Sequence record: MK373786.1
From: Escherichia phage vB_EcoM_R5505
Direction: 5' to 3' (one strand)
DNA length: 64,000 nucleotides
Below, in pieces: positions 10,800 to 41,614 of the stretch. The notes under the pieces are model-generated. The model was given only the letters and a program-made list of their open reading frames with translations, was not told where the DNA came from and did not search any database. The translations under genes and the position numbers were made by a program. Within the stretch, counting starts at the first letter, position 1. Each line of letters begins with the position of its first letter.

Positions 10800-10815
10800 G
10801 GGACCTTTCGGTCCC
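10800..10815. terminator. Bidirectional hairpin terminator between gene 24 and rnlB
   Basis: gggacc-tttc-ggtccc flanked by an A-run on one side and a T-run on the other. Confidence 0.7.
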
Positions 10816-10822
10816 TTTTTAT

Positions 10823-11827
10823 TTAACTTACCAATTCAATCCAAGCCGGACGAAGTACATCTTGTACCATTTTAACTAATTCCTTCTTAATCAAAGAAGG
10901 ATTATCCGCTTGAGTTAGAGTAATACCTTCACGAGAAGTTTCTTCCAAAATATCTTGAACGGTTAGTCCCATCACCTTTCCAAAATCTTTAGGACCAATT
11001 TCGCCAATTTTAGAAATAACGTTATTTACCCGGTTCAGTGTAACGTAACAAGCTAAAATCCCCACCAATTTGTTATCAGCTTCTGACAGTTCAACTTTAG
11101 CTTTAATAGGCTTATCAGACTTTTTCTTTTCACTAAATTTAGAATTCTTGCATTTGATGGCTACACGATTGCGATTAGGCAGCCAAGAAGGATAACAAGG
11201 TTTCAATACATATCCTTCAGCAGTAAATACTTCGCCTTTGGTTTCAGCTTTCCAAACACATTTGTTAGCGTCAATTAAACCTGCATTATCTACGGTAAAA
11301 TTATAAGACGGAACAACAGAATCCAAATCATTTGGAAGTTTAATAAGATCTTCAAATTTACCACGACCCAAAAGTGGAGCGATTTTAAACCCAAATGAAT
11401 TACAAAACGATTCCATCATGTAATCATCAACATAAGTTACATCACCACTTTCGGTAGTGACAATAATGTCAAATACATAAAAATCTTTATCGCCATAATC
11501 AACATTCTTCTGAATGCCAGGTCCAGCGAATTCGCCAAAAACTTGATAAGTCACAACAGCTGAAGTTTCCATAATTTCTTGTACTGCTTTAATGGAATCA
11601 GCGTAATTCTTTAAAATAATTTCATACCCAAAGAAATCTTCAGCAGGAAGAATAGGACCAGTACGTTTAGCGCAAGTTACTTTATCACGCTCAATAATCA
11701 ATGAGAAATTTGTGCCGTGAATCTTTTCACGAGCTACCCATTCGCCGCCAGTCAATCCCAAGCTATAAAGTTTTTCAATAAATTTAGAGTTGTAATGATT
11801 TTCAAGACTGCTATACTTTTTAAACAT
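10823..11827 (-). CDS. rnlB: RNA ligase 2
   Basis: 334 aa as T4 Rnl2; N-terminal nucleotidyltransferase motif KIHGTNFS with the active-site lysine. Confidence 0.92.
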
Positions 11828-23351: not shown

Positions 23352-24316
23352 TGTATTCTTTAGAGGAATTTAATAATCAAGCAATAAACGCAGATTTCCA
23401 ACGTAATAATATGTTTAGCTGCGTTTTTGCGACAACTCCATCAACTAAAAGCTCTTCGTTGATAAGTTCAATTAGCAACTTTTCTTATAATAACTTGGGC
23501 CTAAATTCAGATTGGTTAGGATTGACTCAAGGTGATATTAATCAGGGAATTACCACGCTAATTACTGCTGGCACACAAAAACTGATAAGAAAATCAGGGG
23601 TTAGTAAATATCTTATTGGTGCCATGAGTCAACGTACAGTTCAAAGTTTATTAGGCTCATTTACAGTTGGTACATATTTAATTGACTTCTTTAATATGGC
23701 ATATAACTCATCTGGATTGATGATATATTCAGTAAAAATGCCAGAGAATAGATTATCCTATGAAACTGACTGGAACTATAATTCTCCTAATATTCGTATA
23801 ACTGGGAGAGAATTAGACCCTTTGGTTATTTCATTTAGAATGGATTCAGAAGCATGTAACTATCGTGCAATGCAAGACTGGGTTAACGCTGTTCAAGACC
23901 CAGTAACTGGATTACGCGCTTTGCCACAAGATGTCGAGGCAGATATTCAGGTTAATCTTCATTCTCGCAATGGATTACCTCATACTGCGGTGATGTTCAC
24001 AGGATGCATTCCAATATCAGTGAGCGCTCCCGAGTTATCATATGATGGAGATAACCAAATAACTACATTTGATGTTACTTTTGCGTACAGAGTGATGCAG
24101 GCTGGAGCAGTTGATAGGCAAGCTGCGCTTGAATGGCTTGAATCTGCTGCTATAAATGGTATTCAAAGCGTTCTCGGAAATAGTGGAGGTGTTACTGGAC
24201 TATCTAATTCGCTTTCACGACTTAGTAGATTAGGAGGGACTGCTGGAAGCATTTCAAACATTAATACTATGACAGGAATTGTTAATTCGCAGAGTAAAAT
24301 ATTAGGAGCAATATAA
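23351..24316 (+). CDS. 54: Baseplate tail tube initiator
   Basis: 321 aa (T4 gp54 about 320); followed by hairpin terminator. Confidence 0.9.
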   Translation: MYSLEEFNNQAINADFQRNNMFSCVFATTPSTKSSSLISSISNFSYNNLGLNSDWLGLTQGDINQGITTLITAGTQKLIRKSGVSKYLIGAMSQRTVQSLLGSFTVGTYLIDFFNMAYNSSGLMIYSVKMPENRLSYETDWNYNSPNIRITGRELDPLVISFRMDSEACNYRAMQDWVNAVQDPVTGLRALPQDVEADIQVNLHSRNGLPHTAVMFTGCIPISVSAPELSYDGDNQITTFDVTFAYRVMQAGAVDRQAALEWLESAAINGIQSVLGNSGGVTGLSNSLSRLSRLGGTAGSISNINTMTGIVNSQSKILGAI

Positions 24317-24320
24317 CAAT

Positions 24321-24337
24321 GGGGACCTTTCGGTCCC
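24321..24337 (+). terminator. Hairpin terminator after gene 54
   Basis: ggggacc-tttc-ggtcccc followed by atatttttattt. Confidence 0.7.
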
Positions 24338-24344
24338 CATATTT

Positions 24345-24635
24345 TTATTTACGGAATGAAATGAAAGCAGAAACTGAAGCAACTAAACTGTCTTCAATAT
24401 AAACTTCAATTTTTACCGGAGCTTCTGACTCGAATTTACCTGTTACTACACCTTGGAAAATACTTTCAGTTTGTTCTGGCTTTGAAAAATTTTCAGAAGG
24501 AAAAATTCCGAACTTTTTATCTGTTCCAAAAATTTTGATAAATTCATCATAAACTGCTTCATTAAAAGCATTATCAGCAGGAATAACGCCTTCAACTACA
24601 AGTTCTTGACCTAAAAAGCGCAAAGAAGATTTCAT
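24345..24635 (-). CDS. Hypothetical protein (position of T4 alt.-3)
   Basis: 96-aa ORF directly downstream of an early-promoter/stem-loop element. Confidence 0.6.
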   Translation of the reverse strand: MKSSLRFLGQELVVEGVIPADNAFNEAVYDEFIKIFGTDKKFGIFPSENFSKPEQTESIFQGVVTGKFESEAPVKIEVYIEDSLVASVSAFISFRK

Positions 24636-24643
24636 TTTGTGTT

Positions 24644-24696
24644 CCTCATGTTATGTCAGTAAGACTACTATAACACAACACGAGGGACTTGTAAAC
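24644..24696 (-). promoter_or_regulatory. Early promoter embedded in a stem-loop (53-bp element, copy 1)
   Basis: Minus strand GTTTACA-(17)-TGTTATAGT; 9-bp inverted repeat cctcatgtt/aacacgagg; 51/53 identical to 39971-40023. Confidence 0.6.
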
Positions 24697-26753
24697 TACA
24701 TCTTGAACTTTTTAGACATTCCGTTGATGTTAACCAAAGAAGCCAAGATTTGAGAAACTTCGTTTTCCTCTTCTTTTGATTCTTCTACAAGGAATTGATT
24801 AAATCCAGCCATTGGACGAACTTCACCAGTTTCCATTAAATGGTCGCCATCATATACTGATTCTTCTAATTGTTCAGAAGGAGGAACGATTGTACCTTCG
24901 ATTAGATACTTGTTATAAGCAGTTTCTTTCATAAAGTACGTACTTACTTTATTAATCTTCAGTAAAATTCCACGCGGTAGAATAACTTCAGCTTCTGATG
25001 GAAATCCTGATAAATGACCTGGAACGATAACTTTGATTCGCTCAGCTCCTTTAATTACCATACCCACGCTAGTTTCAGCATCTTCAATGGCATATGTAGA
25101 ATGACTACCCATATGCATTAAATCTTCTGCATCAACGGAACCTTCTCCTTCGCCAGAAAATACTGCGCCGGAATCATCTAGAGCCATATAGTTTTTACCA
25201 TGCTCACCGAAGATATTTGGTTTAAGTGATGTCGATACGAAGTTCTTGAAATAGAACATTTTGTTTTCAATGTTATGACGCAAAGTTTTAAAGGTAACTT
25301 CTTGTCCACGGTAAAGTGTAGTTCCTGGAGGAAGAACTGATCCTTTGGCAAAGGCAGAATCCAACGTCTCGATGTGCTTAATAGCTCGTTCCATATATTC
25401 TTCACGGGTAGAATCTGGTTTACCCAAAAGGAACGAGTTCATTTCAACATATGAATCTGCACAATAATCTTCAATTACATCAGATTCAGCTTGGGTTAAT
25501 CCTTTTGGAGTTACTTCGGTGCTTGCGTATTCATATGCCTGGGCAGCAGATTCATTAATCAATTTATAAATGCCATTCATGACAAATTGAATAATAGCTG
25601 TCTTTTCATCTGGCGTAGCTTTAGAACCTTTAACTAAATCATTAATAATTTTCTTAATAACATCAAAGCTATTAGAAATATTAATGTCAGCAAGATCGCT
25701 TAAAATTTTATCAGTTTTATAATCAAAGAATTCTTTATTCTTTAAATATTCTTGAGAACCTTGATATGTTATATCGCTCTGCAACTTGATAGATGGATCA
25801 CGTAAACGTGCATGGGCTAATGCAATATGATTTCGGAAGTTTTCTAGTTCATAATCGTTAGATTTAAAACGAGAAGCACTTCTCATACCACCGATAGCTC
25901 CTTTGCTAAAGTTTGAACCAATCTGGATAACCCCGGAGTTCATCGGACCTTCTGCTTTATATACCGGAACTTTAGATTCAAACTCTTGATATTTCTTGGC
26001 AGCGAAGCTATCACCCTGAAGTGAAGCATCAACAGTAGAATATTGAGCTTGTGCTGCTAATCGACGACTAATTTTAGTTTTCTGAATAACAGCTTGATCA
26101 GTGCGCTTATCATTTTCTAAAGCAATAGAAGCAGCAACAGCGACAGCTTTAGGAACAGCATTACCTGTTTTAACGTCTACATAAACATCACCAACCTTTG
26201 ATTCAACTTTTGTGAATAACTCAGTTGAAATAGGAGGTACACCTGGAATGTCTTCTAAATTGGCATTTTTACGGTAAACCATAATATATGCATACTTTTT
26301 ATCATAGTCCCAGATTTCCTTTAAAAGAACATATCGACCTGCTCCTTTAGTACGTACTAAACGGTCAGCAATAACTTGCATTTGACGAGCTGCGCCATTT
26401 GTTTTACTCTTTAGTACACGGAATAAGCACGCGTCAATTTTGTACTGCTTCATTGTTTGAAGAGCAGTATCAAAAACAGCATTAATGACGCCAATTGGAT
26501 TTCCACCCAAGTTTCTAAGCTTAACCAGCGATAATTTCTCGTTGACACCTATCATTACGATATGCATCATTTTATCGCCTGGTTTAACGTTTTTATTTGT
26601 ATCACCACCAGAGGTGTATGTACAAAATCTAAATCCAGGAAGAACGCTTTCTTCACCGGCTTGAATAGCAAAAATTTGAGGTATTTTATGCTTAGGATTT
26701 AAGTTAACAACCGGCGCCGAAGCGCCGTCAAATAATTCTGTAATAAGTTCCAT
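24696..26753 (-). CDS. Alt-family ADP-ribosyltransferase paralog (downstream copy)
   Basis: 685 aa; N-terminus MELITELFD... and C-terminal ART motifs (YRGQ, FVSTSL, EAEVILPRG) shared with the adjacent paralog; middle region divergent. Confidence 0.85.
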   Translation of the reverse strand: MELITELFDGASAPVVNLNPKHKIPQIFAIQAGEESVLPGFRFCTYTSGGDTNKNVKPGDKMMHIVMIGVNEKLSLVKLRNLGGNPIGVINAVFDTALQTMKQYKIDACLFRVLKSKTNGAARQMQVIADRLVRTKGAGRYVLLKEIWDYDKKYAYIMVYRKNANLEDIPGVPPISTELFTKVESKVGDVYVDVKTGNAVPKAVAVAASIALENDKRTDQAVIQKTKISRRLAAQAQYSTVDASLQGDSFAAKKYQEFESKVPVYKAEGPMNSGVIQIGSNFSKGAIGGMRSASRFKSNDYELENFRNHIALAHARLRDPSIKLQSDITYQGSQEYLKNKEFFDYKTDKILSDLADINISNSFDVIKKIINDLVKGSKATPDEKTAIIQFVMNGIYKLINESAAQAYEYASTEVTPKGLTQAESDVIEDYCADSYVEMNSFLLGKPDSTREEYMERAIKHIETLDSAFAKGSVLPPGTTLYRGQEVTFKTLRHNIENKMFYFKNFVSTSLKPNIFGEHGKNYMALDDSGAVFSGEGEGSVDAEDLMHMGSHSTYAIEDAETSVGMVIKGAERIKVIVPGHLSGFPSEAEVILPRGILLKINKVSTYFMKETAYNKYLIEGTIVPPSEQLEESVYDGDHLMETGEVRPMAGFNQFLVEESKEEENEVSQILASLVNINGMSKKFKM

Positions 26754-26756
26754 GAT

Positions 26757-28847
26757 TTATCCTTGAACGAACTTGTAAGGCATGTTTGTAATATCTATGC
26801 AAGACGCAATAATTCCAAGAGATGATTCTACTTTCTGTTTAACATTTGATGAAACAAATGATGCAAAGTCAACTCTATCTTCTATATCACCTGTCATTGC
26901 AACTACTTCGCCGGTTTCCATTAAACGGTCACCGTCATAAATTACCGATTCGGTGAGTTCTTCTGTGGTCATAACTTCAGCTTGAATGAGTTTTGTATTA
27001 TTAGACGTGGTTCCGTCATTATTAGAAGCATCAGTTATTTTATTAACTTTAACCATCAATCCGCGCGGTAGAATAACTTCAGCTTCTGTTGCTATTCCTA
27101 GACTTCCTGGATATACAACATTAACTTTATGTGCGCCGTCAATTGCCCATCCTATTTGAACTTTAACGTATTCAGGATTTTCTTTATACGCTCTTATTTC
27201 GTTTGGATTAATAGTTATTCCTTCTTCATTTTTATCAACTGTCAATTCATTACGAGCTTCTGGTTCTAAAAGACCAATACCAGCATGTGTAATTCCAAAA
27301 CGCCCAAAAATGATAGGAGTTAAAGAAGTAGATACAAAATTTCTGAAATAGAACACTTTATTTTTAACTAGCGCTTCGTATATAGGAGCAGTCATACTTT
27401 GAGCACGATAAACTGTAATGCCTTCCGGTATGCGGTCACCATTTTCAAAAGCTGAATCTAAATTATTTATAGCAGATTCAATTTCTTTTTCACTCATTAC
27501 ATCATATCGTTCTGGATTGTAACGACCTAAAAGAAGATTATTGATGTCAGTATATCCTGAACCACAATACTCTCTAATGCCGCGCTTTTGTGATGGAGTA
27601 TATTTAGAACCATCACGAGCAATAGTAATATCAATCATTGGACCTGCACCAATTCCGGAAAAGCTATAAATCATTCGTTTGAGGAATTTAGTTTTTGCTG
27701 CGTTCCAGGAATTTTTAGTTATTTCTTCCCAGACTTCATCTGGTTGCCCTTTACGAGTTTTATTATGTTTATCAAGCCAATTATCTTTATATTCTTCAAA
27801 GAATTTATTAATAGCTGCTGCGTATTTCTCTAAACATTTTATTGAAGTAGTTGGTTCATTTTTTATCGCGTTAAAAATTACATCTTTAATTTTTTCGGAA
27901 ACTTCATCAACCTCACTTTTTGAAAAGAATTTATAGTCATAGTGAAGTTCATTCGCAGTTCCTTCGGCAATAATTTTTGCTGCCTTAGTTTTAGAAGCTA
28001 ATGAATTAATTCCAAGCTTCATTTCTTCTGCTTCGGGAATTAAAGGAGCGGTAGCGGGTTTATTGAAATTAGCTGCGGTAGATTCATACTTCTGAAATAA
28101 TTCACTTTCAAATCTAGAAGATTCCAATGACTGACTTTGTGCAATTGCTCTACGGGAAATTTTAACTTTAACGATTACAGCTTGATCAGAACGTTTATCA
28201 TTTTCTTGCGCAATAGATGCTGCAATTGCCTCATTTTTAGTTACTTGAGCTCCAGTATCTTTATTGATATAAACATCACCGACCTTCGATTCAACTTTAG
28301 TAAAGAGCTCGGTACTAATTTCCGGAACCCCTGGAATGTCTTCTAGTGATACATTTTTGCGATGTATAAGAATATATGCATACTTTTTATCGTAATCCCA
28401 GAGTTCCTTAAGAAGGACGTATCTGCCACCTGAACGACTACGGATAAGTCTATCAGCAATAACCTGAATTTGTCGAGCTTGACCAGCGGTTTTAGACTTA
28501 AGAATACGAAGCATACAGGCATCAATTTTATACTGACGCATTGTTTGCATTGCAACAGTAAAAACTGAATTGATATAATTAATTGGGCTTGAACCAAGAC
28601 CTTTCAATTTAGCAATTGAACCTTTAGCAGTTAATGTAAAAGGAACAATATGCATCATTTTATCGCCCATCTTTAAATCGCGATTAGTATCACCTCCAGA
28701 TGTATAGGTACATAAACGAAAGCCTGGTTGTTCAATTGCATCATCAACATGAACTGAAAAAATTTGTGGTATTTTCTTCTTTGGGTTTAAGTTTGTAATC
28801 GGAAGAGTAGTATCTTCGTCAAATAATTCTGTAATGAGTTCCATCAT
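26757..28847 (-). CDS. alt: Alt-family ADP-ribosyltransferase (upstream copy, probably the alt orthologue)
   Basis: 696 aa (695 from the second Met); R-S-ExE ART motifs YRAQ, FVSTSL, EAEVILPRG; minus-strand TATAAATA at 28868-28875 upstream; which paralog is canonical alt is not certain. Confidence 0.85.
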   Translation of the reverse strand: MMELITELFDEDTTLPITNLNPKKKIPQIFSVHVDDAIEQPGFRLCTYTSGGDTNRDLKMGDKMMHIVPFTLTAKGSIAKLKGLGSSPINYINSVFTVAMQTMRQYKIDACMLRILKSKTAGQARQIQVIADRLIRSRSGGRYVLLKELWDYDKKYAYILIHRKNVSLEDIPGVPEISTELFTKVESKVGDVYINKDTGAQVTKNEAIAASIAQENDKRSDQAVIVKVKISRRAIAQSQSLESSRFESELFQKYESTAANFNKPATAPLIPEAEEMKLGINSLASKTKAAKIIAEGTANELHYDYKFFSKSEVDEVSEKIKDVIFNAIKNEPTTSIKCLEKYAAAINKFFEEYKDNWLDKHNKTRKGQPDEVWEEITKNSWNAAKTKFLKRMIYSFSGIGAGPMIDITIARDGSKYTPSQKRGIREYCGSGYTDINNLLLGRYNPERYDVMSEKEIESAINNLDSAFENGDRIPEGITVYRAQSMTAPIYEALVKNKVFYFRNFVSTSLTPIIFGRFGITHAGIGLLEPEARNELTVDKNEEGITINPNEIRAYKENPEYVKVQIGWAIDGAHKVNVVYPGSLGIATEAEVILPRGLMVKVNKITDASNNDGTTSNNTKLIQAEVMTTEELTESVIYDGDRLMETGEVVAMTGDIEDRVDFASFVSSNVKQKVESSLGIIASCIDITNMPYKFVQG

Positions 28848-28867
28848 ATCCTCTCTAGTGTTTATTC

Positions 28868-28875
28868 TATTTATA
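28868..28875 (-). promoter_or_regulatory. Late promoter TATAAATA (alt paralogs)
   Basis: Plus TATTTATA 28868-28875, followed on the minus strand by GAGAGG RBS and the alt ATG. Confidence 0.6.
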
Positions 28876-28880
28876 AAATT

Positions 28881-28898
28881 AAAGGCCCGAAGGCCTTT
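28881..28898 (-). terminator. Hairpin between the ligase-coupled ORF and alt
   Basis: aaaggcc-cgaa-ggccttt, symmetric A/T flanks. Confidence 0.5.
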
Positions 28899-29085
28899 AA
28901 TAATCTATTGGTAAGAGAGTACGATATATTTCAAACTTTGGACCTTTTTCATAAGCATCAAAAGTTTCTGTGAATTTATTATAAGCATATGCATCTATAA
29001 ATTCAATCATGATTTGTGATACAGAAGTAGAAACATCTCCACCTTCTTTTTGAGCCACGACAATTGTTTCTAAGTAAGCTTTCAT
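28897..29085 (-). CDS. Hypothetical small protein translationally coupled to DNA ligase
   Basis: 62-aa ORF whose ATG overlaps the ligase TGA (ATGA); followed by a hairpin terminator. Confidence 0.5.
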   Translation of the reverse strand: MKAYLETIVVAQKEGGDVSTSVSQIMIEFIDAYAYNKFTETFDAYEKGPKFEIYRTLLPIDY

Positions 29086-30545
29086 AAACCAGTTACCTCA
29101 TGAAAATCACCAAATACATCCTCGAATGTATTAGCTTTAGTTTTATCTTCACGCAAACGAATCGCAATTGGAAGAAATAATTTAACGTAATCAGTGCGGC
29201 CATCGGATTTTAACCAACCGTTGCATTCGCACTCTAGAATTTTTCCAATATAATAATTTTGGTTTTCCATAATGCGAGTACGGTCAAGTTCATGTGATTT
29301 TACGCCGGCTTTATCTTTTAAGCCTGAACCGGCATTTACCTTAATTTTTCCACACTCTGACTCAAGAATAAATCCACCTGCTTTAGTAGGGTCTTTACGG
29401 TGAGGATAAATTCCTACAATTTTTAAATCAACATCAATTACTTCTTTAAATTTATAGAGATTTTTTGAACGAGCATTTTCCCATAATCCATCGATATTTT
29501 TGAGAATAATACCTTCAAGACCTTGGTCAATATACTTTTTATAAATTACCTTAGCTTCATCTAGGTTATTTACTACTTGGTTTTCAATTAAAATTACTTT
29601 ATCATATCCTGATGTCATTTGTTCTAATTTAGAAAAACGTACATCATATTTTAAACGAAATGCTGGAAGACCGTATATTTCTACCAACGGAACATAATCC
29701 CAGACCTGAAACTTCATGCATTGAGCTTCTTTTTCTGAAATAGTTCCCTTTAAAGATTTATTAGCGATTCCATTAGAAGTAGTACGTGATTCAGCTACTT
29801 CAGCAAACTCTTTAGCTTTACTAATTTCAGGATAAGCATCAAAAAGAAAATCTAGGCCTTCTGGCTCCTTTTTAACTTGCTCATGGTATACCAATTCGCC
29901 ATCAATTAACACACCTTCTGGATGAATCTGGCGGGCTTCAGCGGTCATTTTGATTAACTCTTCCTTAAGAAGATCTAATCCTAGATATTCATTACCAGCT
30001 CGTGATAAAAGACGGACATCATCTAATTCATCACCTCTAACTTCAGCAAAACACCGAGCTCCATCTGCTTTTAATTGTGCAAAGGCTGGAAATTTGATAT
30101 TCTTACTAATGCCTTTTTCATCATAAGAACTTGCGAGCATTTGAGGTTGTTCAGGAATTAAACCTGGCCAAACTTTGTTTGCAATAGATACTGAAGCACC
30201 ACATTCAAGGTCTCGCATCATCACTCGACGCAAAACTTCAACATCATCTTTTTTACCATCGGTGATATATCCAGATAATTCCTCAATTGCCGCATTTCCG
30301 GTCAATTTCCGAGTAGCTAACGTGAATTCAATGAAGTCAAGCATATCGGTAAGAGTCAACATTCCAAAACTCTGGGTAGCAATACCAGATTTAGGCCATT
30401 TCTTGATATAATACTGCAACCCACGAGAATAAGTCAGACGATATACTCGTTTAAGCAATTCATTATCTTTATTCTTTTCAAGAATTGCTTGCTTCTGCTT
30501 AGTTGAACCAATAGATGCTATTTCGTTCAGAATTTTAAGAATCAT
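29082..30545 (-). CDS. 30: ATP-dependent DNA ligase
   Basis: 487 aa as T4 DNA ligase; adenylation motif KADGAR. Confidence 0.95.
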   Translation of the reverse strand: MILKILNEIASIGSTKQKQAILEKNKDNELLKRVYRLTYSRGLQYYIKKWPKSGIATQSFGMLTLTDMLDFIEFTLATRKLTGNAAIEELSGYITDGKKDDVEVLRRVMMRDLECGASVSIANKVWPGLIPEQPQMLASSYDEKGISKNIKFPAFAQLKADGARCFAEVRGDELDDVRLLSRAGNEYLGLDLLKEELIKMTAEARQIHPEGVLIDGELVYHEQVKKEPEGLDFLFDAYPEISKAKEFAEVAESRTTSNGIANKSLKGTISEKEAQCMKFQVWDYVPLVEIYGLPAFRLKYDVRFSKLEQMTSGYDKVILIENQVVNNLDEAKVIYKKYIDQGLEGIILKNIDGLWENARSKNLYKFKEVIDVDLKIVGIYPHRKDPTKAGGFILESECGKIKVNAGSGLKDKAGVKSHELDRTRIMENQNYYIGKILECECNGWLKSDGRTDYVKLFLPIAIRLREDKTKANTFEDVFGDFHEVTGL

Positions 30546-30811
30546 TGTTCATCCTTTAGAGTTTGGTTTACAGCTCTATTATAAATCAATTCATCATTAA
30601 GCTCAGTCAAAGACCTATGGTACGTGGTTCTAACTTTATTTCCTTGCATCCAGTGCTTGACGTAAATGAAACCTTGCTCTACACATTTTTTAAAAATTCG
30701 TTCGTCTTTTTGAGCTCGGAATTCTGGATTGCATCTAAAAAATTGATTTACGTGACCGTAATCACGTGTAGTATTACCTTCATTTTCATAAATAGTGTGA
30801 ACAACAAACAT
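30542..30811 (-). CDS. Hypothetical protein (30.1 position)
   Basis: 89-aa ORF, start overlaps the upstream gene stop. Confidence 0.6.
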   Translation of the reverse strand: MFVVHTIYENEGNTTRDYGHVNQFFRCNPEFRAQKDERIFKKCVEQGFIYVKHWMQGNKVRTTYHRSLTELNDELIYNRAVNQTLKDEQ

Positions 30812-31647
30812 TAGAATGCTCCTTGGAAAATATTATCACCACTAGTAGGTCTATTATACAAATACTCTATGCCACCAGGTTTAATATAGTTCCATGTCTG
30901 AAACGGATGTGTCTGATATAGATGATATGGATTATAAGGATTAAATCCAGGAGTTCTCCAGGTAGTGTTCCAACGAAAAGAATCATTTTTAATCATCTTT
31001 TCAATTACATCTTTTATAGCTTTTTCACTATCAAAACTTTCTTTATTTTCCTTTGGTGAAAAAAGCTTATTCTCTACATCGTTCCATGTATAAACTCGCT
31101 GAGCGGTTTTTGGAATACTGTCACGTTCCCCTCGAGCCATCCAATACACAGGAACACGTAATATTTCACTCGCATGATCGCAGTGGTGAGCGAGATCGTC
31201 AATATAACAAATTACGTTATATTTCTCTTTTGCCTTTTTGAACAACTCTTCTTTTGAAGAATCATGACCACACATCATTACTTCTGAGAAGGCACCAGGA
31301 AAAAGAGCATTCAAATTAAATTGACGATTCAACAGAGCGTCAATAGAATCACCCAATGCTGTAACAGCTACAAAATTATAATCTTCTTTTAATTTGTTAA
31401 TTACACACAGGGCATCTTTATATGGAGACAAGTAACGAATAAAATCTGAACGATTGTATTTTTCAATTAGCTTAACGCCAAGCTCTTCATCGCAATTAAA
31501 TAGTTTACCTGGAGAGATAAATTTCTCATCTTGGATCATTTTTAAAATATGTTCCAACGGAAGATTATATTTCTGAGCAAAATAAGGAAGACCTGATTGC
31601 CAGCTTAAACATACTCCATCAATATCAGTTAAAATAGTAGGCTTCAT
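30811..31647 (-). CDS. HAD-superfamily hydrolase-like protein (30.2 position)
   Basis: 278 aa; N-terminal DIDGV motif typical of HAD phosphatases. Confidence 0.65.
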   Translation of the reverse strand: MKPTILTDIDGVCLSWQSGLPYFAQKYNLPLEHILKMIQDEKFISPGKLFNCDEELGVKLIEKYNRSDFIRYLSPYKDALCVINKLKEDYNFVAVTALGDSIDALLNRQFNLNALFPGAFSEVMMCGHDSSKEELFKKAKEKYNVICYIDDLAHHCDHASEILRVPVYWMARGERDSIPKTAQRVYTWNDVENKLFSPKENKESFDSEKAIKDVIEKMIKNDSFRWNTTWRTPGFNPYNPYHLYQTHPFQTWNYIKPGGIEYLYNRPTSGDNIFQGAF

Positions 31648-32108
31648 AGAGAGTCTCTTAATAGGTTTAACACATCAATAAATTCAGCTTCGGTTAGTAT
31701 TGTATCATCTTTTGTTAGACCACTAGCCATGCTGTGCTTCAAAACTTTTCCTTTCGAGGCTTGTAATGCATCACGAAAGCCCTTGTTTTGGATCGCTGCT
31801 TCAAAATATGCATTTGTGTATAATTCTTTCCACGCCGGGGAGTATCTTGAAAACGGAACTCCAATCCAGAAGAGGGTCCCACGGTCCTGAGCTCTAGCAT
31901 AAGACCTTCCAGCTTGTTGGGCGGCAAGCCCGGATAACCCAAATATACGACGTTGTTGTTCAACATTTTTCACCTTACACCCTTGGAGGAATCCTTCAAG
32001 ACCTCCAAATTGAATACCATCCATAACGAAAGGCCATTGGGCGAAATTACTTAATGCGCATGATGGCCATCTAAAATTACTTCTAATCTCTAACTCAGAC
32101 ATTTTCAA
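31644..32108 (-). CDS. YbiA-like (DUF1768) putative N-glycosidase (30.3 position)
   Basis: 154 aa; LSNF...W motif near the N-terminus as in the YbiA/DUF1768 family. Confidence 0.6.
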   Translation of the reverse strand: MKMSELEIRSNFRWPSCALSNFAQWPFVMDGIQFGGLEGFLQGCKVKNVEQQRRIFGLSGLAAQQAGRSYARAQDRGTLFWIGVPFSRYSPAWKELYTNAYFEAAIQNKGFRDALQASKGKVLKHSMASGLTKDDTILTEAEFIDVLNLLRDSL

Positions 32109-32301
32109 TGCTTATAATTTCAACATCAGCCCAATGACCATAGCAAGGAAGACGAAATTCAACTGGCCAGTTAGGGTCCTTTTCTAATATAATAGACTTA
32201 ACTTGTGGTTCTTCGTGTTCATCAGTATACGGATTTTTATCTGTTACTTTATATGTGACCTTAATGTACTGAATTCCAAAAATCTTATTAATTATATTCA
32301 T
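32095..32301 (-). CDS. Hypothetical protein
   Basis: 68-aa ORF in a tightly packed co-oriented array. Confidence 0.5.
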   Translation of the reverse strand: MNIINKIFGIQYIKVTYKVTDKNPYTDEHEEPQVKSIILEKDPNWPVEFRLPCYGHWADVEIISIENV

Positions 32302-32495
32302 ACTAATTCCTTTAATCCGTAGATAGGAGATAATTCATCACCCATACGAAGGTCTTCATTTCCATCTACCCAGGAAACAATATAAGCCTCTTTTATTTGA
32401 ATACCACTCCATTTAAATGGAGGTAGAACCTTAGAAATTAATCCAGGTATACCAACTCCCTTTAATTCAACGGTTTGACCTAAAAAGAATTTCAT
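32298..32495 (-). CDS. Hypothetical protein
   Basis: 65-aa ORF, ATGA-type coupling to neighbours. Confidence 0.5.
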   Translation of the reverse strand: MKFFLGQTVELKGVGIPGLISKVLPPFKWSGIQIKEAYIVSWVDGNEDLRMGDELSPIYGLKELV

Positions 32496-32782
32496 TAAAA
32501 CCTCATCTGAAAACCATGCGATTTAACGTTACCACCGCCAATATCAGAAATATTAATTTCACGCGCAATTGAAGGGTCAATGTCAATTTCACGATTGAGT
32601 TTAGTGATAGCTAAAGTATCGCGCCCATTTACAGTACGGAACTCTAAAGGACAAACCACATCAACGTAGTTTTTAATCGATTCACTAGTAGGCTGCAAAT
32701 GAGCAGGAAGGTCTTTAGGCGCCTTTGAGAAAACCACTTCACAGAAATTTTTGCGGGTATCAAAATAAGTAGTCATAAACAT
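32495..32782 (-). CDS. Hypothetical protein
   Basis: 95-aa ORF preceded by terminator hairpin 32800-32813. Confidence 0.55.
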   Translation of the reverse strand: MFMTTYFDTRKNFCEVVFSKAPKDLPAHLQPTSESIKNYVDVVCPLEFRTVNGRDTLAITKLNREIDIDPSIAREINISDIGGGNVKSHGFQMRF

Positions 32783-32799
32783 AATATTTTCCTCAGTAA

Positions 32800-32813
32800 G
32801 GGGCCGAAGCCCC
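32800..32813 (-). terminator. Hairpin ggggccgaagcccc
   Basis: GC stem with tetraloop between two small minus-strand ORFs. Confidence 0.5.
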
Positions 32814-32824
32814 TCATTTTATTT

Positions 32825-33202
32825 TTAAATATCAAATTCGTTAAGAACTACATCAAAGATTGCTTCCAAGTGCTCAGGTTTAGCTTTGTTACTCAGAATA
32901 TGACGAATCCAAGTTTTAACTAAGAGTTTACGATTAGCACCATTCCAGCAAGGATGAGTCCCTAAATCGCGTTGGCGGAAATCATCATCCAGAGCGATTT
33001 TGAAGTTGGAACCTTTCATCGTGATTGAAACCGTGATACCGTTTTCAAATCGCATATAAACGTAGTTAGGAGTCATATACTGTTCAATTTCGCATACTGA
33101 TCCGTTTTGATGTTTCCAGAGGCAAATAGTATCAATAGAACCTGCAATACCATTAGAAACATATTTACGTTCAAAGTTGATGTAGTTCATTTTATTCTCC
33201 AA
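32825..33202 (-). CDS. Hypothetical protein
   Basis: 125-aa ORF with its own stem-loop-embedded early promoter (33216-33254). Confidence 0.6.
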   Translation of the reverse strand: MENKMNYINFERKYVSNGIAGSIDTICLWKHQNGSVCEIEQYMTPNYVYMRFENGITVSITMKGSNFKIALDDDFRQRDLGTHPCWNGANRKLLVKTWIRHILSNKAKPEHLEAIFDVVLNEFDI

Positions 33203-33215
33203 GATGTTTAATTGC

Positions 33216-33254
33216 GGTACAGGTATATAATATCATATCCTGTACCAAAGTAAA
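33216..33254 (-). promoter_or_regulatory. Early promoter with -10 inside a stem-loop
   Basis: 8-bp inverted repeat ggtacagg/cctgtacc around the minus-strand TATTAT; GTTTAC at 33249-33254. Confidence 0.5.
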
Positions 33255-33257
33255 CAA

Positions 33258-33590
33258 TTATTTTACTACTTTCCAATGCTGCATGTCAAGTTTACCAACT
33301 TTTTTCATCTTCTCAATTAAGCGTTCTGCACGTTGGCGAGCTGTAACATAATGCCATTCGCCTAATTCATTTTGTTCAATTTTTCCAACGATTACTGTAT
33401 TCAATTCATAAATCCAACCAGTAAAGAAATTATGAACTTGAATTGTAAAGGTGAAATCTGTTCCCATACCTTCTGTTGTTTCTACTTCAATAATATCACC
33501 TTCAACTGCCATTAAGAACCACATAGTTTCATTATATTTACCATTGAAGCATTTAGTTTTAACTGCAGCGTTCAGATTAATCGTTTTCAT
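33258..33590 (-). CDS. Hypothetical protein
   Basis: 110-aa ORF with its own stem-loop-embedded early promoter (33605-33647). Confidence 0.6.
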   Translation of the reverse strand: MKTINLNAAVKTKCFNGKYNETMWFLMAVEGDIIEVETTEGMGTDFTFTIQVHNFFTGWIYELNTVIVGKIEQNELGEWHYVTARQRAERLIEKMKKVGKLDMQHWKVVK

Positions 33591-33604
33591 TTTATTCTCC
33601 TTTG

Positions 33605-33647
33605 TTTGTGTAAGATAATACTATCACAAAGGAACTATACTGTAAAC
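33605..33647 (-). promoter_or_regulatory. Early promoter with -10 inside a stem-loop
   Basis: 6-bp inverted repeat tttgtg/cacaaa around the minus-strand TAGTAT; GTTTAC at 33642-33647. Confidence 0.5.
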
Positions 33648-33677
33648 AACTTTATGCAATCTTTGGAAAATAAAAAA

Positions 33678-33695
33678 GGACTCCCGAAGGAGTCC
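33678..33695 (-). terminator. Hairpin downstream of the basic small ORF
   Basis: ggactcc-cgaa-ggagtcc; the minus-strand RNA would carry a U-run after it. Confidence 0.6.
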
Positions 33696-33700
33696 TCAAC

Positions 33701-33877
33701 TTATGCTTTCTGCTTACCAAAACGAGAAGCATCATCTCGAAGAACCGCACGTGCTCGGCGCATGATCTTCTCAACAGTTTGATTGATACGAGAGTTCGAC
33801 CCACGCTTGTAACCAGCGCGTTTAGAATCACCAACTTTCTTTTCAACTGCTTTCTTTGCTTTAACTTGTTTTGCCAT
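33701..33877 (-). CDS. Small highly basic protein (30.9-like position)
   Basis: ORF 33701..33919; ATG at 33877 (MAKQVKAKKAVEKK...) follows a GAG-type RBS; K/R-rich; hairpin terminator immediately downstream. Confidence 0.55.
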   Translation of the reverse strand: MAKQVKAKKAVEKKVGDSKRAGYKRGSNSRINQTVEKIMRRARAVLRDDASRFGKQKA

Positions 33878-34165
33878 TATAAATTCTCTTTTAAATGAAA
33901 ATGCAGGACTTATTGACATTGCCTGCGCAAGCCCTCAAGGGGAACATAGGTTTTTGGATATTTAACGACCAGGATAACCATAAACCCGTCATCATACCAC
34001 CAAGACTTATACAGATAACACTTTTCTGACGCATGATAGTAACATTCAAGAGGTACACCGTAAAACTGTCGGGGTCTTAAAACTATAATGATTCGCAAAT
34101 CATTAATCAGACAGTTCGACGGCTCCTCGATTTAGCTCACACTAAGGCAGTGAATCTCCAATAAA

Positions 34166-34414
34166 TTACTTCAATGTTACCACAAAGTGACGAACTGCTT
34201 TTCGTGCAGCAGAAGCCAAAGGCTTAGCATATTTAAGTTCATCTTTTTCCTGAAGCTCAGCAGCTAATGCAGTTTGAGCGGGATTCAGATGTTTGAAATA
34301 ACGCAGGATTTCAAGAGCTTCGGCTTCAACATCAATAGATGCGCCATAGTTTTCGTGACCATTATTCCATGCGTTTCGTTGCAGTTCAAGAGCGTGTTGT
34401 AATTGTTTAATCAT
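34166..34414 (-). CDS. rIII: rIII lysis inhibition accessory protein
   Basis: 82 aa as T4 RIII. Confidence 0.88.
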   Translation of the reverse strand: MIKQLQHALELQRNAWNNGHENYGASIDVEAEALEILRYFKHLNPAQTALAAELQEKDELKYAKPLASAARKAVRHFVVTLK

Positions 34415-34561
34415 TTAAAAATTCTCGTTAGAGATTAAAACTCGGTAGTCACGTTCTTCTGAATTTCATCTTCTTTCGACAGATCTCTCAGTTGTAGACT
34501 ACCACATAGAATTGTTCGGTTAACTTATTATTCCGACACCCAATTCATATTATTATTTATA

Positions 34562-34897
34562 TCACTTATAAAGACACGGAATAGCTTTATAGTGACAGGT
34601 AACAAATTTTTGTTTAATTTCTTTTGGCTGCTTAAGACCCAGAGCTACAAAAGGATGCGGAACATTTCGAATTTGACCAACTGGAAGAGAAGTCAAATCA
34701 CCAACTTCGCAGAAACCTTCAGGAACATCAGGACCGACAGAGTGAACTACACACAGTTCAGGAACTTCACCTTGAACACGTTTACCGATAATAAGTCCTG
34801 ATTCTGTAACTTCTTCATCACCGGCTTGTGCAGGTTCAGAAACTAAAATAACATATTCACCGACAGCACGAATTGGTAGCTGTTGTACTTCAGACAT
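34562..34897 (-). CDS. 31: Head assembly co-chaperonin (GroES homologue)
   Basis: 111 aa as T4 gp31. Confidence 0.92.
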
Positions 34898-34953
34898 CGT
34901 TTTTCCTTTTTGTTAACAGATGAATTAATAATAACAAATAATTCTTAAAGCAT

Positions 34954-35262
34954 TTATTTACCAATAAATTGAAGCAAATGCTCAACTTTCATACCATTAA
35001 CAGAAATCAATTTGTCAATAGAAAAACCTCGCCATGCACCAAGCTCAACATCAAATACTGGAATCATGTCAGTAGATTCTTTCCGAGTAGATTCAGTCAA
35101 TTTACCAGTTTGCATGGTTGGCATAAAGTCTGCATCACGAGTACCTTTCATAGTACGAATAGTACCATCAGACTTTTCAAAAACTACGTTTGAAACACCC
35201 ATGGACAATTTAGTTTTCAAAATTTCACGAATTGCTACTTTCTGCTCAGTTGTCAGTTTCAT
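34954..35262 (-). CDS. Hypothetical protein (31.1 position)
   Basis: 102-aa ORF. Confidence 0.6.
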   Translation of the reverse strand: MKLTTEQKVAIREILKTKLSMGVSNVVFEKSDGTIRTMKGTRDADFMPTMQTGKLTESTRKESTDMIPVFDVELGAWRGFSIDKLISVNGMKVEHLLQFIGK

Positions 35263-35499
35263 TTATTTACCTATTACAGTTTTAATATGAGTTGTTCCAC
35301 GTTCTTTAAGGGTGGAAAGTAATTTTTGGCATTTTTCTAAATCAGATTTCCAACTATATGGTCTATCAATACTAGTCCAATCAGTTTTATAATACTGTTT
35401 CCATTTAGAGAAAAAATATTTCTTATACTCTACAGCAAATGAGATGTTCTCGTTAGAATAAGAACTAATTGCTGTGAGCTTTACCAAACGAAATTTCAT
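35263..35499 (-). CDS. Hypothetical protein (31.2 position)
   Basis: 78-aa ORF. Confidence 0.55.
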   Translation of the reverse strand: MKFRLVKLTAISSYSNENISFAVEYKKYFFSKWKQYYKTDWTSIDRPYSWKSDLEKCQKLLSTLKERGTTHIKTVIGK

Positions 35500-36080
35500 T
35501 ATTCACCACAGAATTCGTTGATATTTTCCCAGTTTAACTTATTCAAGTTTTTCTTAGGAACATTAAACACTTCAATACCTGCATTTCGCAGAATATCATC
35601 CCAGCCAGGTTTATTTTTATCGTATGTTTCGCAATAAACCAGCTTTTTAATACCAGATTGAGCTATCGCTTTTGCACAATCTGGACAGGGAGAAAGTGTT
35701 ACATACATAGTAGCACCTTCAATAGAAGAACCATTTCGTGCAGCAAACAAAATTGCATTTAGTTCAGCATGAATTTCATTTTTAGATGACCATTCCGAAT
35801 GAGCGCTGCGGTGTTCTTTCGCCAAGACAAAACGATCAGTTGAACCAAATGATACACATTCAGGCTTATGACCTTGAATGATAGTATGTTTAGGCTTATT
35901 CAGTAACCAGCCTTGCTCAGCAGCATAATCACAACAGTTCACACCCCCTGCGGGTGAACCATTATACCCAGTAGAAATAATACGTCCATTCTTTTCAATT
36001 ACTGCTCCTACCTTCCAGGAGCAACATTTTGATTCCTGTGATACTAAATATGCAATTTGAAGTACTGTACTCGCTTTCAT
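35499..36080 (-). CDS. cd: dCMP deaminase
   Basis: 193 aa as T4 Cd; zinc-binding HAE ... PCxxC deaminase motifs. Confidence 0.93.
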   Translation of the reverse strand: MKASTVLQIAYLVSQESKCCSWKVGAVIEKNGRIISTGYNGSPAGGVNCCDYAAEQGWLLNKPKHTIIQGHKPECVSFGSTDRFVLAKEHRSAHSEWSSKNEIHAELNAILFAARNGSSIEGATMYVTLSPCPDCAKAIAQSGIKKLVYCETYDKNKPGWDDILRNAGIEVFNVPKKNLNKLNWENINEFCGE

Positions 36081-36415
36081 TTCATAATCACCAGATAAGC
36101 AGATTTAGCAGTTTCAACACGATAAATTTCGTGACGAAGTTTAGTTATACTTTTAATAACAGAACTAATTATATTCTGCCCATCTTTAAAGCGGTTTTTC
36201 TTATCAATAAAAACTGCGCCAGTCATCTTTTTGTGAAGCTCAACCGGATACTTCGTCACAATAATAGCATCATACACAGAAGGATGAATACTATTCACCA
36301 GAGTATCATTCATTAAAGTTATTCTAATGAACTGTGCTGTTTCAGAGTCAAGCGCTCTATGATCGCCAGTATCATTTTCAAGACAATTATCAATTATATC
36401 AGTTAAATTCATCAT
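36077..36415 (-). CDS. Hypothetical protein (cd.1 position)
   Basis: 112-aa ORF, start overlaps upstream stop. Confidence 0.6.
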   Translation of the reverse strand: MMNLTDIIDNCLENDTGDHRALDSETAQFIRITLMNDTLVNSIHPSVYDAIIVTKYPVELHKKMTGAVFIDKKNRFKDGQNIISSVIKSITKLRHEIYRVETAKSAYLVIMK

Positions 36416-36648
36416 AGTACGCCATACGCCCTTTGTGCTTCAACTAATCCATCAAAATCCAATTTGAGATGTGTTATTTGGTCACCATCACCTGGATTCA
36501 CAATTACTAATACTGAACGAGGAGTTTCGGTAATAACACGAACCGATGTTTCAGGAAATCGTTCAGAAACCTTATTTACCAATTCCTGCGCAAATAGTTT
36601 AACTTTTTCTTGGAATTCTTTAACAGTAATTGGTTTTTCACTTAGCAT
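36412..36648 (-). CDS. Hypothetical protein (cd.2 position)
   Basis: 78-aa ORF downstream of early promoter/stem-loop 36670-36708. Confidence 0.6.
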   Translation of the reverse strand: MLSEKPITVKEFQEKVKLFAQELVNKVSERFPETSVRVITETPRSVLVIVNPGDGDQITHLKLDFDGLVEAQRAYGVL

Positions 36649-36669
36649 TTTGTTTTCCTCATTTGTTTT

Positions 36670-36708
36670 GGTAGAGCTATAATATCACAACTCTACCATA
36701 AAGTAAAC
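36670..36708 (-). promoter_or_regulatory. Early promoter with -10 inside a stem-loop
   Basis: 7-bp inverted repeat ggtagag/ctctacc around the minus-strand TATTAT; GTTTAC at 36703-36708. Confidence 0.5.
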
Positions 36709-36710
36709 TG

Positions 36711-36992
36711 TTAAATTGCCTTGAATTCTGATGTCTGTGATTCAAAACGAATATCGCCTTTGATGACTAGCTCAGCATCAAGACCAAATACGACAATGAT
36801 ATGCGCGGAACCCGGATACAGCGTAATTGCAATAGAATCCACCTGGTCTGGAAGCAAAGTGTTCAATACATGAGTCACTTGAGCATGAATTCGAAGCTCG
36901 GCTGCGTTATCAAGCTTTTCAAACATATTATTAGCGATAATTTGACTAAACACTACTTCTACGATTTTAGAATAAGTCGGAAACATATTCAC
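36711..36992 (-). CDS. Hypothetical protein (cd.3 position)
   Basis: 93-aa ORF. Confidence 0.55.
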   Translation of the reverse strand: MNMFPTYSKIVEVVFSQIIANNMFEKLDNAAELRIHAQVTHVLNTLLPDQVDSIAITLYPGSAHIIVVFGLDAELVIKGDIRFESQTSEFKAI

Positions 36993-37189
36993 CTCACATA
37001 ATTTTCTTCAAGCCAATTAATAACATCCAACGCATTATCAAAAGTTGAACCATCTACTATGTCTTCTGTTTCATAATCAAGAATATCTAAGTCTACTCTT
37101 CCATCAACAATAGGCCATAAACAAAATAGATATTTCTTTTCTTTTTCAATTTTATCACAAAGTCGATAAATCTTTTCTATGTTATTCAT
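36989..37189 (-). CDS. Hypothetical protein (cd.4 position)
   Basis: 66-aa ORF. Confidence 0.55.
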   Translation of the reverse strand: MNNIEKIYRLCDKIEKEKKYLFCLWPIVDGRVDLDILDYETEDIVDGSTFDNALDVINWLEENYVR

Positions 37190-37378
37190 AAGTTTTCCAC
37201 GGTAAAGGCAGTTTAGTTTTCTTTACTGTTAGTTCAACATCAGGATTCTTTTCTCTTAATTTAAGGCATTCCTCCCAAGCTCTTATTTCACTAGTGAATA
37301 CACAAAATTGCCCATTACTAGTACCAACTAAACCACTATTTACAATAACAATAGACCAAGTTTCATGATGCCACGCCA

Positions 37379-37379
<1 letters not shown>
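37182..37379 (-). CDS. Hypothetical protein (cd.5 position)
   Basis: ORF 37182..37409; internal ATG at 37379 (MAWHHETW...) overlaps the pseT stop (TAATG). Confidence 0.5.
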
Positions 37380-38591
<1,212 letters not shown>

Positions 38592-39118: not shown

Positions 39119-39468
39119 TTAGAAAGGTCCTGGATGTCTTCTGCGAACTTGTTGAAGGAGTTGTTGATTTGTTTTTCAACCAATCCTGGCTTATGAGCCA
39201 CCACATCCGCCTTCTTTGCGTCTTTGCGCAGTTTTTCATTTTCACGCTCAATAGCAGCAATTGCCTCACGATTTTTATTATTCATCGCATCAATATAATT
39301 ATACTGAATTCGCAAATTATTTAATGCTAAGGCGTTTTCATTGGCCGTTTTTGTAATTTCAGTAACCGATGTTTCTAATCTTTCTACCTTATTTTTTAAA
39401 ATAATAGATGTTCCACCAAATACTATTACAAGTAATAGCAAACCTGCTGTCGTATTACTTAATTGCAT
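39115..39468 (-). CDS. Putative membrane-anchored coiled-coil protein
   Basis: 117 aa; hydrophobic N-terminal helix then K/E-rich heptad-like region. Confidence 0.55.
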   Translation of the reverse strand: MQLSNTTAGLLLLVIVFGGTSIILKNKVERLETSVTEITKTANENALALNNLRIQYNYIDAMNNKNREAIAAIERENEKLRKDAKKADVVAHKPGLVEKQINNSFNKFAEDIQDLSK

Positions 39469-39965
39469 AAAGTTTTAATAACCTCTATAATATCGTCTTG
39501 AGAAAGACCGTTAATTAAAATATGATGTTCCGCCGGAGATTTAGAAATTTTAAAGCATGCCGCAACATCTTCTGCCATATCCGATGCGCTACGATTTGGA
39601 TTACTAATTCCAAGACGATGTTTTCCCGTTAAAGGATTAACGATAATATAGCATTTACAGCTATTGATATGAACATTAGGTTGAGTCTGATTAATGAACA
39701 CTTCACAATCATACTTAGCGAGTTGATTTTCTAAAAAGACTTTCATCTCTTCAACCGCATCAGGAAGCATATCACGGGCTTGCTCAAGACGACGATTTCG
39801 ATATTCTTTAATGGTCGTTTTCCGCTTGACTTGCTTAGCTAAATCTTTCTTAAGATCGGTGATATATCCAACTCGACGATTTCCTTTAAATACAGAAATC
39901 CCATCTGTAGTATCACCGTATGCTTCAACGACCATTTCAGTAGTAATAAGCTGCAAATCCATCAT
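39459..39965 (-). CDS. alc: Probable Alc (host transcription inhibitor)
   Basis: 168 aa (T4 Alc about 167 aa) in the expected position between the pseT cluster and rnlA; called on size and synteny only. Confidence 0.65.
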   Translation of the reverse strand: MMDLQLITTEMVVEAYGDTTDGISVFKGNRRVGYITDLKKDLAKQVKRKTTIKEYRNRRLEQARDMLPDAVEEMKVFLENQLAKYDCEVFINQTQPNVHINSCKCYIIVNPLTGKHRLGISNPNRSASDMAEDVAACFKISKSPAEHHILINGLSQDDIIEVIKTLCN

Positions 39966-39970
39966 AAAGT

Positions 39971-40023
39971 CCTCATGTTATGTCAGTAAGATTACTATAA
40001 CACAACATGAGGGACTTGTAAAC
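39971..40023 (-). promoter_or_regulatory. Early promoter embedded in a stem-loop (53-bp element, copy 2)
   Basis: Same element with perfect 9-bp inverted repeat cctcatgtt/aacatgagg; upstream of the alc-position ORF. Confidence 0.6.
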
Positions 40024-40026
40024 AGC

Positions 40027-41614
<1,588 letters not shown>

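Follow-up and report, generated by a model that had tools for sequence, protein, structure and literature searches.

A near-identical early-promoter cassette upstream of alc and alt.-3 in Tequatrovirus, with a predicted hairpin that pairs the ribosome-binding site

Two intergenic 53-bp sequences, 15.3 kb apart, share 51 of 53 positions in the 64,000-nt stretch of the genome of Escherichia phage vB_EcoM_R5505 analyzed here (sequence record MK373786.1; hereafter the window). One lies just upstream of alt.-3 and the other just upstream of alc, and each is very probably an active T4-type early sigma70 promoter. In RNA that reads through from the gene upstream, the same sequence is predicted to form a long hairpin, the 3' arm of which contains the Shine-Dalgarno (SD) sequence of the downstream gene. 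The account that is narrowly favored for the whole is that of an early promoter nested in a hairpin that would mask the SD, the alt.-3 copy having been converted from the alc locus.

A promoter cassette present in two copies

On the minus strand, copy 1 (24696..24644) reads GTTTACAAGTCCCTCGTGTTGTGTTATAGTAGTCTTACTGACATAACATGAGG over its 53 bp, and copy 2 (40023..39971, minus strand) departs from it only by a G to A change at each of cassette positions 16 and 32. The elements of the two copies are as follows, the arms being those of the predicted RNA fold.

24644..24696, minus strand: cassette copy 1, 53 bp, running from the G that precedes the -35 through the final G of the SD, between the downstream alt paralogue and alt.-3
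24690..24695, minus strand: copy 1 -35 hexamer TTTACA, extended to GTTTACA by the G at 24696
24667..24675, minus strand: copy 1 extended -10, TGTTATAGT; predicted +1 at the A at 24660, from spacing
24666..24688, minus strand: copy 1 predicted 5' arm with the anti-SD CCUC, spanning spacer and -10, ahead of the predicted start (RNA fold)
24641..24661, minus strand: copy 1 predicted 3' arm with the SD GAGG at 24644-24647 (RNA fold)
39971..40023, minus strand: cassette copy 2, 53 bp, between rnlA (gene 63) and alc
40017..40022, minus strand: copy 2 -35 hexamer TTTACA
39994..40002, minus strand: copy 2 extended -10, TGTTATAGT; predicted +1 at the A at 39987, from spacing
39993..40017, minus strand: copy 2 predicted 5' arm, anti-SD (RNA fold)
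39967..39988, minus strand: copy 2 predicted 3' arm with the SD GAGG at 39971-39974 (RNA fold)

A search of the window allowing up to three mismatches returned two sites, the two copies themselves. None was expected from 100 shuffles, by which chance or low complexity was ruled out as the cause of the pair, and a repeat search of the window recovered the pair as family D8 (54 nt, 96%). Ten early-promoter-like sites of the window were aligned at the -35, giving 45 pairs with the twin included; the other 44 match at a mean of 23.8 of 53 positions (standard deviation 4.7, maximum 36). The preliminary description of this DNA had put the identity at 51/53 over a distance of 15.3 kb, and had held the copies to be much closer to each other than the other early promoters are; direct alignment and the mismatch search bear out the former, and the pairwise comparison the latter. 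The twin identity far exceeds chance or promoter consensus.

Each copy is the top-scoring sigma70-like site of its region. The arrangement is TTTACA, a 17-nt spacer, TG and TATAGT (GTTTACA ... TGnTATAGT), as the preliminary description had it, with 10 of 12 consensus positions matched in both copies together with the extended -10. The -10 occupies cassette positions 25-30, and the predicted start is therefore the A at position 37. The copies resemble canonical T4 early promoters (UP / -35 GTTTAC / TGn / -10; PMC2988021) in the GTTTACA, the spacer length, the TGn-extended -10 and the predicted A start. That consensus explains only about 16 of the 53 positions, whereas the remaining 37 match at 35 between the copies; other pairs of early promoters in the window match at a mean of 12.2 of these 37, and at most at 22. 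The 25 nt upstream of each copy are alt or rnlA coding sequence and, judged by eye, are not more AT-rich than the AT-rich genome.

The window genome is a Tequatrovirus, of which 701 bp are 100% identical to Escherichia phage teqdroes. Both copies are present in T4 itself, where they agree at 52/53 positions, and blastn with the 53-mer found 997 places in 499 phage records, two per genome and apparently all of the T4 group (Tequatrovirus). The presence of the twin in T4 and in these 499 records argues that it is a property of the T4 genus and not of one isolate. Further copies elsewhere in the genome, which a dispersed family would supply, did not appear: there are exactly two per genome across the 499 records. 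A metagenome scan returned 8 stretches only, and single-protein scans of the IMG/VR database close relatives only.

A hairpin that would bury the SD in read-through RNA

RNA reading through the cassette is predicted to fold into a hairpin of 14 + 4 bp, at -23.0 kcal/mol for copy 1 (z -4.0) and -27.7 kcal/mol for copy 2 (z -6.0), and RNA beginning near the predicted +1 is predicted to be unstructured (-1.3 and -1.8 kcal/mol, z about 0). The 5' arm corresponds to cassette positions 9-31 and so lies upstream of the predicted +1; the 3' arm terminates in AACAUGAGG, SD included. Since promoter-initiated RNA is without the 5' arm, only read-through RNA can fold the hairpin. In the minimum-free-energy fold of copy 1 all four SD bases are paired, their partners being cassette positions 12-15, and in copy 2 again 4/4 are paired. 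Neither of the two base changes that separate the copies disrupts the fold: one turns a G.U into an A-U pair, and the other falls on a loop base.

The -10 had been described as lying within a 9-bp inverted repeat, CCTCATGTT/AACATGAGG. That repeat is perfect in copy 2 and includes a G.T in copy 1, and the predicted RNA structure is much larger than 9 bp. A terminator scan called nothing at either cassette, and no T-run follows the stem. An Rfam search over 24000-41000 gave no match at either cassette at E <= 1.

Conserved design and covarying arms at the alc site

The comparison drew on both intergenic regions from about 40 genomes. At the alc site most lineages have GTTTACA, followed at once by an anti-SD arm, then the -10, and then the SD-containing arm; this design occurs there in at least nine T4-like lineages. 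A non-redundant set of 16 cassettes was assembled from 14 alc-site sequences (Karam-, Gelderland-, Kagamiyama-, Dhaka- and Marfavirus and further lineages) and the two Tequatrovirus copies. In all 16 the SD is paired with cassette positions 9-15 in the predicted fold, with at least three of the four SD bases engaged in each, and fold energies run from -15.6 to -25.4 kcal/mol (z -3.3 to -6.8).

The arm sequences vary by lineage and their complementarity is kept, as in TCTCCATTTGGTT/AACCAAATGGAGA, ATCCTCATTTTGTTG/CAACAAAATGAGGAT and AACCTCTCATTTT/AAAATGAGAGGTT. Duplexes of cognate arms average -20.1 kcal/mol against -10.7 kcal/mol for non-cognate arms, a gap of 9.4 kcal/mol. The cognate arm is the best partner in 9/10 rows and 10/10 columns of the comparison, and in 100,000 permutations the observed sum was never reached. 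RNAalifold, run on an unguided MAFFT alignment, called nine pairs, eight of them with compensatory changes. The proportion of paired cells on that alignment was 86% against 71% in shuffles (0/500 as high), slid controls reaching at most 60%, and the covariation score was 0.476 against 0.214 (again 0/500). A covariance model built from the non-Tequatrovirus alc cassettes only ranked copy 1 first in the 64-kb window (33.4 bits, E 1.3e-5) and copy 2 second (28.9 bits, E 1.5e-4).

Origin of the alt.-3 copy

The six other genera sampled all have a different cassette at the alt.-3 site, with a small hairpin wholly within the spacer (for example CCACA-AGGA-TGTGG, GCAC-AAGGAA-GTGC and ACATCC-ATGGAA-GGATGT). 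These hairpins are worth -7 to -11 kcal/mol (z about -1), and the SD is unpaired with the spacer. Among the genera sampled, the anti-SD cassette of the alc type is found at alt.-3 in Tequatrovirus only. Copy-to-copy identity ends sharply, starting at the -35 and stopping at the SD, two motifs common to both cassette types.

The alc locus is most likely the ancestral home of the anti-SD design, to judge from this distribution. Because every other genus sampled has a different, spacer-confined hairpin at alt.-3, the Tequatrovirus copy there was most likely acquired from alc by ectopic gene conversion. A single event preceding the Tequatrovirus radiation would suffice, in which the alc cassette overwrote the alt.-3 promoter 15.3 kb away, its end points falling within GTTTACA and CATGAGGA, motifs common to all these cassettes. 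That copying between the two loci took place is held with good confidence.

Dhakavirus VR5 appears to have undergone an independent partial conversion between the same two loci. Its alc cassette shares with its own alt.-3 cassette, 16.6 kb away, an exact run of 32 nt that starts immediately past the -10 and includes the first 2 nt after the ATG; the two cassettes lie at L091 17230-17290 and 660-720. The 5' half is of the Dhakavirus alc type and matches the alc cassette of the relative WG01, whose own alc and alt.-3 cassettes share 10 nt only. The chimeric VR5 cassette still pairs the SD. In Mosigvirus the alc site holds an alt.-3-like cassette that is 74% identical to the alt.-3 cassette of the same genome, the top pair, the next pair being at 71%; this is suggestive only of a replacement in the reverse direction.

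Within Tequatrovirus the consensus haplotype is identical at both loci, and the copies of one genome differ at 0-4 positions. Three variants, 15T, 16A and 32A, are found at either locus depending on the Tequatrovirus genome, some having them in the alc copy and others in the alt.-3 copy (seen across the window, L040, L060, L059, L082, L084, L087 and L090). The pattern is ambiguous between continuing conversion and very few free sites, and would be significant only if most positions are free to vary. The preliminary description had also proposed the repeats as substrates for T4 recombination. The Tequatrovirus-only cassette at alt.-3 and the VR5 chimera speak for that proposal; no deletion or duplication junctions at the copies were seen in the 499 records.

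The spacer hairpin of the alt.-3 type (for example CACAAGGAUGUG) carries GGA in its loop and resembles the high-affinity CsrA site, RUACARGGAUGU. Spacer hairpins of this type occur at L015:790-846, L016:~810-863 and L014:5331-5386 and in other non-Tequatrovirus alt.-3 cassettes. The loop GGA and the GGA of the SD could together form a two-site CsrA target on read-through RNA.

Flanking genes, expression and the proposed role

The genes and the boundary that frame the two cassettes are listed below as open reading frames (ORFs) and one hairpin.

24345..24635, minus strand: alt.-3 ORF, 96 aa, function unknown, phrog_1739; served by copy 1
24696..26753, minus strand: downstream alt paralogue, 685 aa; its transcripts must enter copy 1
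39459..39965, minus strand: alc ORF, 168 aa, inhibitor of host transcription; served by copy 2
40027..41187, minus strand: rnlA ORF (RNA ligase 1, gene 63), extent as in the ORF list; its transcripts must enter copy 2
24319..24340, both strands: bidirectional terminator-like hairpin between the ends of gene 54 and alt.-3; bounds the copy 1 transcription unit

Copy 1 overlaps the downstream alt paralogue by one base, its initial G (of GTTTACA) doubling as the final base of that gene's TAG stop codon, and copy 2 begins 3 nt past the rnlA stop codon. Each copy had been placed directly upstream of an ORF start, and indeed 8 nt separate copy 1 from the alt.-3 ATG and 5 nt the end of copy 2 from the first alc ATG. 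Both genes are conserved well beyond Tequatrovirus. The orders alt|alt.-3 and rnlA|alc, the two genes of each pair about 55-65 bp apart, are kept in Gapriver-, Mosig-, Dhaka-, Marfa-, Gelderland- and Karamvirus.

In T4, alc and alt.-3 are both early at the RNA and protein level, and alt, alt.-1 and alt.-2, just upstream of alt.-3, give middle-class RNA (PMC9697503, supplement); alt is also expressed late. These published T4 patterns are consistent with early promoters being active at the two sites. T4 middle promoters of the same direction lie upstream of rnlA (PnrdB and PI-TevIII) and of alt (P30 and P30.2) (PMC2988021, Table 1). Scans of both regions called nothing terminator-like between either cassette and the genes upstream of it. 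Because no such site precedes the cassettes and middle promoters lie upstream, read-through transcripts must exist.

Polymerase starting from the cassette's own promoter, about 7 nt past the -10, would make an unstructured leader of about 22-25 nt in which the SD is free, and alc or alt.-3 would be translated. Read-through RNA arriving via rnlA (from PnrdB or PI-TevIII) or via alt (from P30 or P30.2, or by late alt transcription) would carry both arms and fold the 18-bp hairpin, burying the SD. The alc or alt.-3 product would then come essentially only from the gene's own immediate-early promoter. The chances that the SD is masked in this way in read-through RNA are put at about even. The possibility that a ribosome terminating on alt or rnlA would open the stem (translational coupling) was set aside by reasoning: the 11-17 nt from the stop codons down to the anti-SD bases were judged too great a distance for such a ribosome to bridge. 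The fuller picture, that of an 'early-only' translational insulator moved repeatedly between two loci 15-17 kb apart (whole in Tequatrovirus, as a 3' half in VR5 and possibly in reverse in Mosigvirus), is offered tentatively, at rather less than an even chance.

Relationship to promoter early stem-loops and to masked ribosome-binding sites

The preliminary description matched the cassettes to the promoter early stem-loops (PeSLs) of T4-type genomes (Arbiol et al. 2010, PMC2839356; Comeau et al. 2014, PMC4122927). The match holds for the layout, an intergenic unit of stop codon, early promoter, stem-loop over the -10, SD and ATG, which fits the RB49 and phi1 elements, whose stem-loop lies mostly between the boxes or overlaps the -10 (PMC2839356). 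It also holds for a length short enough for a T4 recombination substrate, and for comparative signs of exchange between copies. A further PeSL trait is an AT-rich tract upstream of the -35, a region that in the twin is coding sequence. The match fails elsewhere. PeSLs form a dispersed family in hyperplastic regions, whereas the twin consists of two copies; PeSLs adjoin ORFans, whereas the twin is flanked by conserved, core-like genes; and in PST and T4 the authors place the stem-loop just upstream of the promoter, which is not its position in the twin. The stem of the twin is without terminator features, and its 3' arm is the SD, conserved and covarying. What would have moved by conversion in the twin is the promoter cassette itself and not the ORFs. 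Neither PeSL paper (PMC2839356, PMC4122927) mentions translation, SD sequestration or gene conversion. The element belongs to the broad PeSL-like class and lacks the population features of that family; it is best modeled as a PeSL-like layout joined to a T4-style masking hairpin around an early promoter.

Masking hairpins of that style are known in T4 for e, soc, 49 and I-TevI (PMC3014915). As in those cases, the SD or AUG would lie in a helix of the long read-through RNA (a predicted helix here), and the promoter lies in the DNA of the 5' strand, so that a gene's own transcript would escape the structure, given the +1 placed here. The known cases differ in using late (gp55-type) promoters, with translation occurring late, whereas the twin has an early sigma70 promoter and translation would be immediate-early. 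Neither alc nor alt.-3 is among the masking-hairpin cases in the review (PMC3014915).

T4 is the reference system for temporal gene control, and at each of its known hairpin-masked ribosome sites the promoter is a late one, so that translation is delayed. A version built on an early promoter, if real, would restrict a protein to the opening minutes of infection despite later transcription across its gene, and would have been conserved, by covariation, across many genera. It would also offer a concrete, datable case of the PeSL idea that promoter cassettes are units of recombination, one in which the cassette moves and not the gene. For annotation and engineering, the intergenic 53-mers are worth keeping intact.

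Alternative explanations

The likeness to PeSLs can be taken further: the stem-loop would terminate or attenuate upstream transcripts, and the copies would belong to a mobile promoter-terminator family that shuffles adjacent ORFs. Beyond the RB49/phi1-like layout, with the stem-loop over the -10 and the SD and ATG at its 3' end, this accords with the finding that one PeSL stem-loop cut downstream lacZ expression as much as a strong terminator did (PMC2839356), and with the stable hairpins spanning the -10 at 7 of the 10 early promoters of the window. Exchange between the two loci in VR5 is likewise in its favor, as is a deletion at T4 alt.-1/alt.-2 (see below) that ends 20 nt upstream of copy 1, although its end points lie outside the cassette. 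Termination is nonetheless an unlikely function here. There is neither a T-run nor a called terminator at either copy, and the stem spans a loop of about 20 nt to pair the SD specifically in 16/16 lineages, which would be needless for a terminator. The adjacent ORFs were not gained or lost together with the element, as a shuffling family would have it, since alc and alt.-3 keep fixed positions, with their upstream gaps, in at least seven genera, and each genome has two copies only. The hairpin might instead serve the upstream message, as a 3' stabilizer or processing site (for example, for RNase III) of rnlA or alt mRNA, the SD pairing being incidental. The stem is long (18 bp) and stable and starts within 6-12 nt of the upstream stop codon in all genera, as such a role would have it; yet in every alc-type lineage it is the SD that anchors the 3' arm, and the distance to the upstream stop is variable. 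No experimental processing data were found for it, nor any Rfam match, and this explanation is improbable. Least probable is that the near-identity reflects a need at the DNA level (a protein bound to the inverted repeat, or promoter structure) and not copying. Hairpins spanning the -10 are common among early promoters, and the asymmetry between sense and antisense strands is mixed across genera, both of which such a need would allow. The arms covary freely between genera, however, so that no fixed sequence is needed; 35 of 37 non-consensus positions are identical between the copies, loop and bulge included, which is unlike convergence; and in all other genera the two sites hold different cassettes.

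Several observations weigh against a masking hairpin copied from alc to alt.-3. In the alc-site cassettes of L034/L053 and L042, and at the window promoters with -35 positions 33254, 36707 and 48070, the hairpin spans the -10 and stops short of the SD, and the common denominator of this wider class may be something other than SD masking. Both the relative stability of sense and antisense folds and the counts of wobble pairs are mixed across genera, and covariation alone therefore cannot assign the structure to sense RNA over DNA or antisense RNA. The predicted start site was placed by spacing alone. As to origin, the Tequatrovirus cassette is 65% identical to alc-site and 62% to alt.-3-site cassettes, with a 3' half equally close to both, and the signal was too weak for cassettes to be typed by sequence identity. 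Typing by covariance-model score was not clean either: the Dhakavirus alt.-3 cassette scores 26 bits, within the range of Tequatrovirus alc copies. Identity and score being poor classifiers, the assignment of cassette type rests on architecture, and the shared cassette could be a mosaic of both types.

Neighboring features and related sites

The hairpin at 24319-24340, GGGGACC-TTTC-GGTCCCC between the convergent genes 54 and alt.-3, has a terminator score on both strands, and a related copy of it (70% over 47 nt) lies 13.5 kb away at 10800-10846. Upstream of copy 1, the window has two full-length alt paralogues in tandem (24696-28850, minus strand), with repeat families spaced about 2088 nt apart. 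In T4, alt.-1/alt.-2 (record L002 5534-5960) match the initial 339 nt of the downstream alt paralogue, apart from a 1-nt indel near nt 160, followed directly by the final ~20 nt of that paralogue. They are thus the product of a 1.7-kb internal deletion rather than of the partial duplication suggested by the note in the T4 record.

Between rnlA and alc, Gaprivervirus VR25 has an additional ORF of 77 aa, a duplicate of the Alc N-terminal region (L013 15741-16060), and the promoter of this ORF has a GGGG...CCCC hairpin over the -35, in the manner of an RB49-style PeSL stem. The annotated starts of VR25 alt.-3 (L013 557-880) and of Shf125875 alc (L014 18708-19271) reach upstream into the promoter cassette; they are probably mis-annotated, and a downstream ATG preceded by an SD fits the orthologues.

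Other early-promoter-like sites of the window, with -35 positions 33254, 33646, 36707, 48070 and 52349 on the minus strand, also have a stem that spans the -10. Four of the five stems are stable (z -3.5 to -5.4), and that at 52349 is weak (z about 0). Beside the site at 33646, positions 33662-33745 (minus strand) give a weak Rfam match to the Rhizobiales small RNA Atu_C8 (31.4 bits, where the gathering score is 50; E 0.006), which is probably due to chance. The stem at 33646 pairs that site's own SD (AAAGGAG) as well, and the anti-SD design is found also at L017:6386 (Melville) and L018:7659 (EnC15); by these predicted folds, the class is wider than the twin.

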